Source: a virus (taxonomy: Duplodnaviria > Heunggongvirae > Uroviricota > Caudoviricetes). From it: a stretch of 16,694 nucleotides of DNA. The notes under the pieces are model-generated. The model was not told the origin of the DNA. It saw nothing but the letters and a program-made list of their open reading frames with translations, and ran no database searches. Positions 7,855-10,449 of this stretch are shown piece by piece. Location of the stretch: positions 1 to 16,694 of IMG/VR virus record IMGVR_UViG_2563366825_000009. One strand, written 5' to 3'. A program made the position numbers and the translations under genes. The stretch's first letter is position 1. Every line of letters starts with the position of its first letter.

Positions 7855-7861
7855 GTCAGTC
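7855..7861. repeat. Target-site duplication (left copy) of the IS21-family element: GTCAGTC
   Basis: Identical 7-mer GTCAGTC directly flanks both ends of the element (7855-7861 and 10443-10449). If the element ends are placed 1 nt outward, the duplication is the 5-mer TCAGT. Confidence 0.7.
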
Positions 7862-8054
7862 TGCGTATTTTCATGAAAGGAGATCACTCAATAACTTCCA
7901 TCGAGATCGGGTAATAACATTTGAACAGATCGCTGAATAACATCGATGGAGATCACTTTTGACTCATTTTGTTATTCAGTGATCTCCATCAATGTTATTG
8001 GAACTTCACAGGTGTGTTGATCTGTATCTTTTGCCATTCCGGTAAAGGATACCT

Positions 8055-9596
8055 ATGCCAACAGTTCCAATTTCTATGAGAAAACTTAAAGAAATTCTTA
8101 GGCTTAAATACGGTGTTGGACTCAGCCATCGACAAATTGGTCGTAGTCTTGCAATCTCCCCTTCCGTTGTATCCAGATATGCTAATCGGGCGGCTCAACT
8201 TGGCATAAAGCAGTGGCCCTTACCTACAGGATGGGATGATACAAAACTAAAACATGCGTTCCTTCAGACCCAGGTTAAGATGAAGAAGCACTCTCTGCCT
8301 GACTGGGCTACAGTACACCGGGAACTGCGTAATAAATGCGTGACGCTGCAGCTACTCTGGGAAGAATACTGTGAGCGTAATCCAGGCGGTTTTTACAGCT
8401 ATAACCATTACTGCCGGATGTACCGTGAATGGCTCAAAACCACTTCACCATCAATGCGTCAGGTACATAAAGCTGGCGAAAAACTTTTCGTTGATTACTG
8501 TGGACCTACCGTTGGCGTTACCGACCCTGAGACCGGAGAAATAAGAACTGCTCAGGTCATCGTAGCTGTTCTCGGGGCATCAAGTTACACATGGGCAGAG
8601 GCCACCTGGTCTCAGCAGCTTGAAGACTGGGTGATGAGTCATGTTCGCTGCTTCCAGTGGTTGGGTGGCGTTCCTGAACTTGTTGTTCCGGACAATCTGA
8701 AAAGCGCCACATCCAGGGCATGTAAGTATGATCCTGACGTTAACCCTACCTACCAGCAGATGCTTGAGCATTATAATGTCGCAGTTTTGCCTGCGCGGCC
8801 ACGTAAACCGAAAGATAAAGCCAAAGCTGAAGTTGGCGTTCAGGTTGTTGAACGCTGGATCATGGCCCGAATCAGGCATGAGATCTTCTACAGCCTTGCA
8901 TCGCTTAATCAGCGCATTCGGGAGTTGCTGGAAAGACTGAATAACAAAATAATGCAGAAGTTGGGTTATTCACGTGCAGAACTCTTCATCCAGCTTGATA
9001 AACCCGCACTGAAGCCTCTTCCTGAAGCCAGTTACAGTTACACCCTGGTGAAGAAAGTCAGAGTTCATGCCGATTACCACGTGGAAATCGACAAACATTA
9101 CTACTCGGTTCCATGTTCGCTGTTAGGCCAGCAACTGGAAGCATGGATCTCCGGAGAACTGGTAAGACTCTTCAATCAGGGGCAGGAGGTTGCTGTGCAC
9201 CCGCGCAAGCGTACTTATGGCTACAGTACCCGCAACGAGCACATGCCTGAAGCTCATCGACAGCATGCCACCTGGACGCCAGAGCGTCTTCTGGAATGGG
9301 CGGGGCACATAGGCAGTGAAACTCATAGTTATGTGCTTCATATACTGAACTCTCGTCCACATCCGGAACAAAGCTATCGCTTCTGCCTTGGACTCCTGAA
9401 CCTTCATAAAAAATACAGTAAAGCCAGACTTAATGCAGCATGTGCAAGAGCTCTGAAAACAAAGGTATGGCGTCTGTCAGGTATTAAATCGATCCTGGAA
9501 AAAGGTCTGGATAAACAACCTGTTCAGGATCCAAAACCAGATCTGTTATCCACGATGGAACACGAAAACGTACGCGGCAGTGAGTATTACCACTGA
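8055..9596 (+). CDS. istA: IS21-family transposase IstA (513 aa)
   Basis: N-terminal HTH (LSHRQIGRSLAISPSVVSRY) and a DDE integrase-core-like central region; gene order istA then istB with a 11-nt gap; AAGGA before the ATG. Confidence 0.9.
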   Translation: MPTVPISMRKLKEILRLKYGVGLSHRQIGRSLAISPSVVSRYANRAAQLGIKQWPLPTGWDDTKLKHAFLQTQVKMKKHSLPDWATVHRELRNKCVTLQLLWEEYCERNPGGFYSYNHYCRMYREWLKTTSPSMRQVHKAGEKLFVDYCGPTVGVTDPETGEIRTAQVIVAVLGASSYTWAEATWSQQLEDWVMSHVRCFQWLGGVPELVVPDNLKSATSRACKYDPDVNPTYQQMLEHYNVAVLPARPRKPKDKAKAEVGVQVVERWIMARIRHEIFYSLASLNQRIRELLERLNNKIMQKLGYSRAELFIQLDKPALKPLPEASYSYTLVKKVRVHADYHVEIDKHYYSVPCSLLGQQLEAWISGELVRLFNQGQEVAVHPRKRTYGYSTRNEHMPEAHRQHATWTPERLLEWAGHIGSETHSYVLHILNSRPHPEQSYRFCLGLLNLHKKYSKARLNAACARALKTKVWRLSGIKSILEKGLDKQPVQDPKPDLLSTMEHENVRGSEYYH

Positions 9597-9607
9597 TACG
9601 GGATCCA

Positions 9608-10357
9608 ATGATGAATCATCTTTACGAACAACTGACCGCACTTAAACTCACCGGCTTCCGTGATGCGCTTAAAAAGCAACTTGCTCAGCCGGGCACATAC
9701 CAGGAGCTGGGCTTCGAAGAACGCCTGTCATTACTGACAGCAGAAGAACTACCCTGCCGTGAAAACAGGAAGGCAGAGCGTCTGATCAAACATGCACGGT
9801 TCAGACTTAATGCTGAGTTATCAAAGCTGGATTATCGTAACAATAGAGGGCTGGACAGGGCCCTCATCCGTTCACTCAGTCAGGGAAACTGGTTAACCCT
9901 GAAACAAAATATTTTACTGACCGGGGCCACCGGCAGCGGTAAAACGTTCCTGGCATGTGCACTTGGTCATAATGCCTGCCGACAGGGATACAAGGTCTAC
10001 TATTATCGCCTTAAAGCGCTGATGGAACAGTGCTATCAGGGGCATGCTGATGGAAGATACAGCAAACTTTTGACCAGGCTGAATAATAGCGATCTGCTGC
10101 TTCTGGATGACTGGGGGCTGGAACCTCTCTCATCAGAACAGCGTAGCGACCTGCTGGAAATAGTGGATCTGATGTACCAACGAGGCTCAATCATCGTAGT
10201 GAGCCAGTTGCCGGTGGAAAACTGGTACAAAATGATCGGAGACTCCACACATGCGGATGCCATCCTAGATCGACTGGTTCATGGCAGTATCAAGATCGAA
10301 CTTAAAGGAGAATCAATGCGGAAAATACAATCTCCGTTGACCGAAGGAGATCAGTGA
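9608..10357 (+). CDS. istB: IS21-family helper ATPase IstB (249 aa)
   Basis: Walker A GATGSGKT, Walker B LLLLDDWG; typical IstB length and position. Confidence 0.95.
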   Translation: MMNHLYEQLTALKLTGFRDALKKQLAQPGTYQELGFEERLSLLTAEELPCRENRKAERLIKHARFRLNAELSKLDYRNNRGLDRALIRSLSQGNWLTLKQNILLTGATGSGKTFLACALGHNACRQGYKVYYYRLKALMEQCYQGHADGRYSKLLTRLNNSDLLLLDDWGLEPLSSEQRSDLLEIVDLMYQRGSIIVVSQLPVENWYKMIGDSTHADAILDRLVHGSIKIELKGESMRKIQSPLTEGDQ

Positions 10358-10442
10358 AGGTAATTTAAAAACGGTTCTGTGAAAGTGACACGAACCGATC
10401 TCCATCGATGTTACTCACCGATCTCCTTCACGGTAATACGCA

Positions 10443-10449
10443 GTCAGTC
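10443..10449. repeat. Target-site duplication (right copy) of the IS21-family element: GTCAGTC
   Basis: See the left copy at 7855-7861. Confidence 0.7.

Follow-up and report, generated by a model that had tools for sequence, protein, structure and literature searches.

A complete ISEc12 element between the pL promoter and the early-left genes of a P13374/Oslovirus-like lambdoid prophage

Locus and identity of the inserted element

The DNA analyzed here (IMG/VR virus record IMGVR_UViG_2563366825_000009, positions 1 to 16,694; "the window" denotes this whole stretch of 16,694 nucleotides) comes from a lambdoid prophage of the P13374/TL-2011c (Oslovirus) type and spans its immunity and early region. 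Its genes and sites are arranged in the order Q, ninG, primase/helicase genes, cro, cI, a restriction gene remnant, a terminator, a pL-like promoter, the pL leader and an insertion sequence (IS), followed beyond the IS by an open reading frame (ORF) of 183 aa and by ant, kil, gam, recT, and exo. The IS, located at 7862-10442 (+ strand) and 2581 bp long, is the subject of this report. An earlier note, made from the sequence of the window, had described it as an IS21-family element that is complete, with both istA and istB intact, TG/CA ends, and repeated end motifs, inserted between pL and the early-left genes, and all of these features are indeed in the sequence. The early-left genes are the 183-aa ORF, ant, kil, gam, recT, and exo.

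On the evidence of its full-length match to RefSeq-annotated copies, the element is a complete ISEc12 of the IS21 family. It agrees with the common ISEc12 sequence at 2580/2581 nt, the name being that given to the matching copies in the RefSeq/PGAP (Prokaryotic Genome Annotation Pipeline) annotation ("IS21-like element ISEc12 family"). Its boundaries are fixed by eight other full-length ISEc12 copies from unrelated contexts, in 8/8 of which the first and last bases are identical; between each of these fetched copies and the window copy there is one difference, at window 9752. ISEc12 is among the commonest E. coli ISs: by megablast it is present in 1909 of the 5426 complete E. coli genomes, at 5553 places (median, 3 places per carrying genome), and also on 978 plasmids from Escherichia, Shigella, Klebsiella, and Salmonella. 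Four deposited coliphage genomes carry it too. IS insertions in prophages are routine, and what we report is a known element in a new yet unremarkable position.

The istA gene (8055-9596, + strand) encodes a 513-aa DDE transposase with the Pfam domains rve and Mu-transpos_C_2. The protein scores 310.5 bits against NCBIfam NF033546 (IS21 family transposase equivalog; cut-off, 160), is identical to the IstA of other ISEc12 copies (annotated as WP_001298859.1), and gives an alignment with the IS5376 IstA structures that spans the DDE core. The product of istB (9608-10357, + strand; the RefSeq start is the ATG at 9611) is a 249-aa AAA+ helper ATPase, with scores of 225 bits against Pfam IstB_IS21 (PF01695) and 268 bits against NCBIfam NF038214 (IS21-like element helper ATPase IstB; cut-off, 200) and a match to the solved IS5376 IstB structures at an E value of 3e-27. 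The C found at 9752 in place of the A of the other copies changes IstB residue 49 from threonine to proline (T49P) and is the sole difference from the common ISEc12. This variant occurred at 0/4152 of the ISEc12 places in complete E. coli genomes, which identifies it as private to the window copy or as a sequencing error. Residue 49 aligns inside the N-terminal (dimerization) domain of IS5376 IstB. T49P could impair further transposition of the window copy.

Upstream of istA, a 12-bp hairpin (8024-8052, + strand) pairs with the Shine-Dalgarno sequence of the gene (AAGGA, 8045-8049), and the left-end RNA as a whole (7862-8070, 209 nt) is unusually stable when folded (z = -5.2). The predicted hairpin over the Shine-Dalgarno sequence suggests a translational damping of the transposase.

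The termini begin with TGCGTATT and finish with AATACGCA, with the TG/CA ends of the IS21 family; the outer 8 bp form a perfect inverted repeat, which extends to ~25 bp (20/25 matches) if one indel is allowed. Besides the terminal inverted repeat, the left terminal region (7862-7999, + strand) contains GGAGATCA in direct orientation at 7879 and 7948 and, in degenerate form, near 7903 and 7927; it also has an inverted copy at 7980 and a -10-like TATTTT box at 7866-7871. The right terminal region (10343-10442, + strand), which ends in AATACGCA, carries the repeat GGAGATCG twice on the - strand, at 10396 and at 10419, and once on the + strand, at 10346, together with a -35-like TTCACG box at 10427-10432. 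The motif GGAGATCR is found six times in the 16.7-kb window, in all cases no more than ~130 nt from the ISEc12 ends, against a chance expectation of 0.88; none of 200 shuffles (0/200) gave six. By their sequence and arrangement, these repeated blocks are candidate transposase-binding blocks of the IS21 type, and they are present in each end. A simulated right-end/left-end tandem junction brings the two boxes together as TTCACG-16..18-TATTTT, a match to the consensus only.

This organization is that of IS21 and IS5376, the prototype and structurally characterized members of the family (PMC10122671, PMC11208146), with which the element has in common an istA-istB operon for a DDE transposase and an AAA+ helper, TG...CA ends, a short target duplication, several direct repeats in each end (as described for the multi-repeat ends of IS21 [PMC10122671]), and a -10 box on the left and a -35 box on the right that would form a promoter at a tandem junction. 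Similarity to the IS5376 proteins is distant, at 99 bits for IstB and 52 bits for IstA, and IstA is 513 aa long here versus 406 aa in the deposited IS5376 chain; the target duplication is 7 bp here versus 5 bp for IS5376 in vitro (PMC10122671). Compared with the other ISEc12 copies, the window copy is equal in length (2581 bp), ends, and IstA, whereas it alone has IstB T49P and its insertion site is absent from the complete E. coli genomes. As far as sequence can tell, all testable hallmarks of the IS21 family, i.e., DDE IstA, AAA+ IstB, TG/CA ends, end repeats, target duplication, and junction promoter boxes, are present.

Target site and arrival of the insertion

The element is bordered by a perfect 7-bp direct repeat, GTCAGTC, that can be read from the sequence at 7855-7861 on the left and 10443-10449 on the right, exactly as first noticed. 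The 7-mer taken alone is not rare (three occurrences in the window versus 1.6 expected); the probability of finding it by chance adjoining both ISEc12 ends is ~4^-7. The duplication carries weight because the 7-mer abuts both ends and because an empty site exists. Eight other ISEc12 copies had duplications of 5 bp in four cases and 7 bp (GTCAGGG) in one, and no duplication in three, so that within this small sample (n = 8) 5 bp is the commoner size and a 7-bp duplication appears less common yet normal for ISEc12. A 5-bp duplication extended by two chance bases was considered and ruled out, because the other copies define the IS end and one full 7-mer stands in the empty site.

The empty site was searched for with an IS-free query, i.e., the window minus ISEc12 and minus one GTCAGTC, removed in silico, and uninterrupted targets were recovered in relatives, as the earlier note had proposed to check. 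The metagenome contig L007 has the exact empty site, reading ...TTTGAAGTGGTCAGTCGAACTG... with a single GTCAGTC, and aligns with the IS-free window in one high-scoring segment pair (6503 nt; 99.37% identity; 1 gap). Besides L007, six loci are uninterrupted (L001, L002, L006, L008, L009, and H52, the last not among the fetched loci), with ~95-99% identity and the variant GTCGGTC. The search with the IS-free query had given three complete genomes, continuous across its junction at ~97% identity; a strict exact scan of viral contigs with a 24-mer found no empty site, and a degenerate pattern then recovered four more loci, L007 among them.

The occupied site was not seen elsewhere. The right junction had no exact match among one genome per species, and the same insertion was present in 0/5426 complete E. 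coli genomes, whether the query was the whole window or a junction probe of 80 nt. Because the empty-site contig has one GTCAGTC at contiguous flanks, the event was a simple transposition; and because no complete E. coli genome holds the junction, the insertion is probably lineage specific and fairly recent. The view of a clean and probably recent transposition put forward in the earlier note is therefore upheld.

In mechanistic terms, ISEc12 would have transposed by the normal IstA/IstB pathway with a staggered cut of 7 bp in the target. The target would have been, in a P13374/Oslovirus-like lambdoid prophage, the early-left leader, which is untranslated: the insertion point is ~490 bp downstream of pL, and the first early-left ATG, at 10469, is 19 nt past the right duplication.

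The pL leader and the question of an N gene

A consensus scan places a pL-like promoter, TTTACA-17-TATATT, at 7341-7369 (+ strand; 10/12 matches), in a position annotated as O-L or pL in phi80, HK225, and HK639. The stretch between it and the IS was thought in the earlier note to contain a disrupted N frame, and on this point we disagree. No ORF in 7240-7861 matches Pfam or PHROG, the phi80 protein annotated as N has no counterpart in the window by tblastn, and none of the relatives examined has an annotation in the pL-to-IS stretch, not even the characterized Stx2a phage P13374, to which 7370-7655 is 99.7% identical. By all these comparisons, an N gene is absent here, whether whole or disrupted; the phage group appears to be N-less and nothing to be broken.

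What the stretch does contain is a conserved noncoding leader. Segment 7376-7650 is near-invariant across prophages that differ in their upstream repressor/operator and downstream gene modules; in a relative with another repressor, the sequence differs upstream of ~7376 and is invariant downstream. The conserved block of the leader (7449-7636, + strand) starts with a perfect rrn-type boxA, TGCTCTTTAACAA, at 7449-7461, followed by a structured domain with its core at ~7486-7598, and shares 94% identity with the pL-proximal leader of phi80. HK225 and a Klebsiella phage also have the block, and more distant versions of it occur in Edwardsiella phages and many viral contigs. An alignment of 15 diverse sequences supports the structure, as 93.9% of cells pair versus 31-44% when the partners are slid; compensatory changes affect 5/25 pairs, and one hairpin has been swapped wholesale for different self-complementary sequences. 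Comparative analysis was needed to see this, the full 280-nt leader being unremarkable when folded alone (z = -1.0). Rfam gave no match at E <= 1 in 7240-7861 or in the IS, and searching the literature for antitermination in P13374 gave nothing.

In P13374, a terminator-like site lies between the leader and the first early-left gene, and the leader would therefore have to confer read-through there. We infer from the sequence comparisons that the leader is a candidate antitermination signal of an N-less phage group and that it is intact in the window. Upstream rather than downstream of boxA, at 7394-7408, there is a boxB-like hairpin, GCCCTTACACAGGGC.

The closest analogues in genomic placement are the put RNAs of HK022 and HK639 (PMC9378689 and the HK639 annotation), which occupy the same slot, directly downstream of pL, in phages without N. 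The window leader and the HK639 pL leader share an 18-nt stretch (17/18 nt) just before putL; a longer shared start of the 5' leader with HK639 is found in phi80 and HK225 but not in the window. Between the annotated HK639 putL and the window leader there is no significant similarity, the best match being 9 nt (E = 0.17). The window leader also has a perfect boxA, which is not described for put sites, and its structured part is longer (~110 nt). Judged by sequence and structure, the leader would thus not class as a put RNA, and genomic position is the only property that the two have in common. A second small hairpin, GTCGTACGGCGCGAC, was observed between the pL start and boxA (7394-7432), with 17/18 nt shared with the HK639 leader before putL.

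Consequences for early-left transcription

The direction of istAB is that of pL transcription, i.e., the insertion is in the sense orientation, and a consensus scan detected no terminator-like site on the + strand in 7240-10442. ISEc12 is situated 400 nt downstream of the intact and highly conserved boxA-plus-structured leader, a type of element that renders RNA polymerase resistant to termination. Upon induction, pL transcripts would cross the boxA leader and continue, at least in part, through the IS into the downstream genes, and such read-through would also transcribe istAB. Read-through is likely because of the boxA-containing structured leader upstream and because that strand has no predicted intrinsic terminator. 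The insertion is probably, on this analysis, a mild or partial lesion rather than an early-left knockout, and only the 183-aa ORF would clearly need transcription across the IS. We accordingly differ from the earlier note on the state of the prophage, since a "defective prophage" does not follow from the sequence; cI, whose immunity the note took to be retained, is intact (237 aa; helix-turn-helix [HTH] plus S24 peptidase).

IS insertions in the early operons of lambda provide the precedent, as their polarity is relieved by N-mediated antitermination. Here, too, the IS separates an early promoter, followed by an antitermination signal, from the genes served by that promoter. The two situations differ in that there is no N gene here and the presumed signal is an uncharacterized boxA-plus-structured RNA, so that relief of polarity is presumptive.

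In our judgment, it is very probable that the locus reflects an ordinary transposition of ISEc12 into the early-left leader, with read-through likely and a mild lesion as the outcome. Some points weigh against this interpretation. What speaks for antitermination by the leader is its position, boxA, and conservation, and these only. The ribosome-binding site of istA is hairpinned, and the 193-nt IS leader together with a poorly translated istA RNA could load Rho and bring about polarity if the polymerase is unmodified. Complexes formed on rrn-type boxA counteract termination by Rho, though not necessarily blocks of every kind. IstB T49P, moreover, might block re-mobilization of the window copy, its arrival being unaffected.

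The same features feed the most serious alternative, in which a strongly polar IS severs the early-left genes and, further on, the excision functions from pL, leaving a prophage with its immunity kept and defective in early-left expression. The IS does lengthen the distance from pL to the first ORF by 2.6 kb and shows no outward or hybrid promoter; its strong left-end RNA structure, with the istA Shine-Dalgarno sequence sequestered, would generate untranslated RNA open to Rho, and a C-rich, G-poor stretch lies just upstream (7656-7800). However, the IS is sense oriented with no intrinsic terminator predicted on the + strand, the boxA-plus-structured leader upstream of it is intact, and the "disrupted N" adduced in support of polarity is wrong. 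The conserved promoter at 11043-11072 (11/12 matches) could, besides, give ant and later genes a promoter of their own. Adhya, Gottesman, and de Crombrugghe in 1974 reportedly found that pL polymerase modified by antitermination passes polar IS insertions in lambda, which we also count against this alternative. Strong polarity is possible, while read-through seems at least as likely from the sequence features; overall, we hold a true early-left defect to be doubtful, and less likely than partial or full read-through.

An outward or hybrid promoter at the right end of the IS, activating the 183-aa ORF, would be another way for the insertion to alter expression. Right ends of IS21-family elements carry a -35 box (PMC10122671), and TTCACG at 10427-10432 would pair with TATTTT of the left end in a tandem junction. 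Yet, even with relaxed thresholds, the actual flank offers no -10-like hexamer 15-19 nt past any -35-like one of the last 50 nt, and the consensus scan gave no + strand promoter in 10006-10830; taken together, the scan and the relaxed hexamer check indicated that neither junction forms an outward or hybrid promoter, making this reading very improbable. Least credible is that unrelated flanks were joined by an assembly artifact or by recombination between two ISEc12 copies. ISEc12 is multicopy, with a median of 3 places per carrying genome, and the lack of a duplication at 3/8 other copies indicates that rearrangements occur. Against this stand the perfect 7-bp duplication and the contiguity of the flanks, in L007 (99.4%, with one copy of the 7-mer) and in six other loci. 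On this sequence evidence, an artifact or recombinational origin was tested and is essentially refuted; its probability is close to nil.

A bolder extension of the ordinary-transposition reading would have an undescribed N-independent antiterminator leader drive polymerase through ISEc12 upon induction. Expression of the early-left genes would then persist, and the SOS response would be linked to a burst in istAB expression and in transposition. We consider this scenario speculative and, as a whole, unlikely.

The gains from the analysis are that the element is named, the preinsertion site is recovered, and the inference of a disrupted N in a defective prophage is corrected. The insertion also provides a natural test of whether N-less Stx-type phages obtain read-through from their conserved pL leader, and the interest of the locus lies mostly in the pL leader RNA and not in the IS.

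Other features of the window

The first gene past the IS, the 183-aa ORF (10469-11020, + strand), has a signal-peptide-like N terminus and belongs to PHROG 19473, which has no assigned function; it is of equal length in the empty-site relatives. Beyond it and upstream of ant (ATG at 11283) is the promoter-like site mentioned above, TTGACA-18-TATATT at 11043-11072 (+ strand; 11/12 matches), which is exactly conserved in six relatives. It is followed by a hairpin plus T7 near 11105-11139 and, at 11157-11245 (+ strand) in the gap before ant, by a match to the Rfam family sRNA-Xcc1 (RF02221) of 69.5 bits, above the gathering score. Region 11043-11245 may exert small-RNA or leader control over the antirepressor gene ant, and the promoter at 11043 may serve ant and later genes or only a short transcript ending near 11139.

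On the other side of pL, cro lies at 5654-5893 (- strand), the intact cI gene occupies 5953-6666, and a terminator is located at 7217-7238. Just after cI, at 6896-7198 (+ strand), there is a C-terminal remnant of a BsuBI/PstI-type restriction endonuclease, the truncation of which is identical in strain SCU-104. P13374 and an O111:H8 prophage have a complete methylase-plus-endonuclease pair in that slot, and others have hicAB. Because relatives hold a restriction pair or hicAB there, the site after cI is, from these gene contents, a swappable moron slot.

Beside the Q gene is a hok/sok-type toxin-antitoxin module (279-603, - strand), comprising a match to the sok RNA (RF01794, 118 bits) at 429-603 and a Hok-like 51-aa ORF at 279-434. 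Finally, a 250-aa ORF at 14595-15347 (+ strand) matches only the first half of PHROG 887 ("queuine tRNA-ribosyltransferase"; positions 11-266 of 509) and, given this partial alignment, may be a truncated or rearranged gene.

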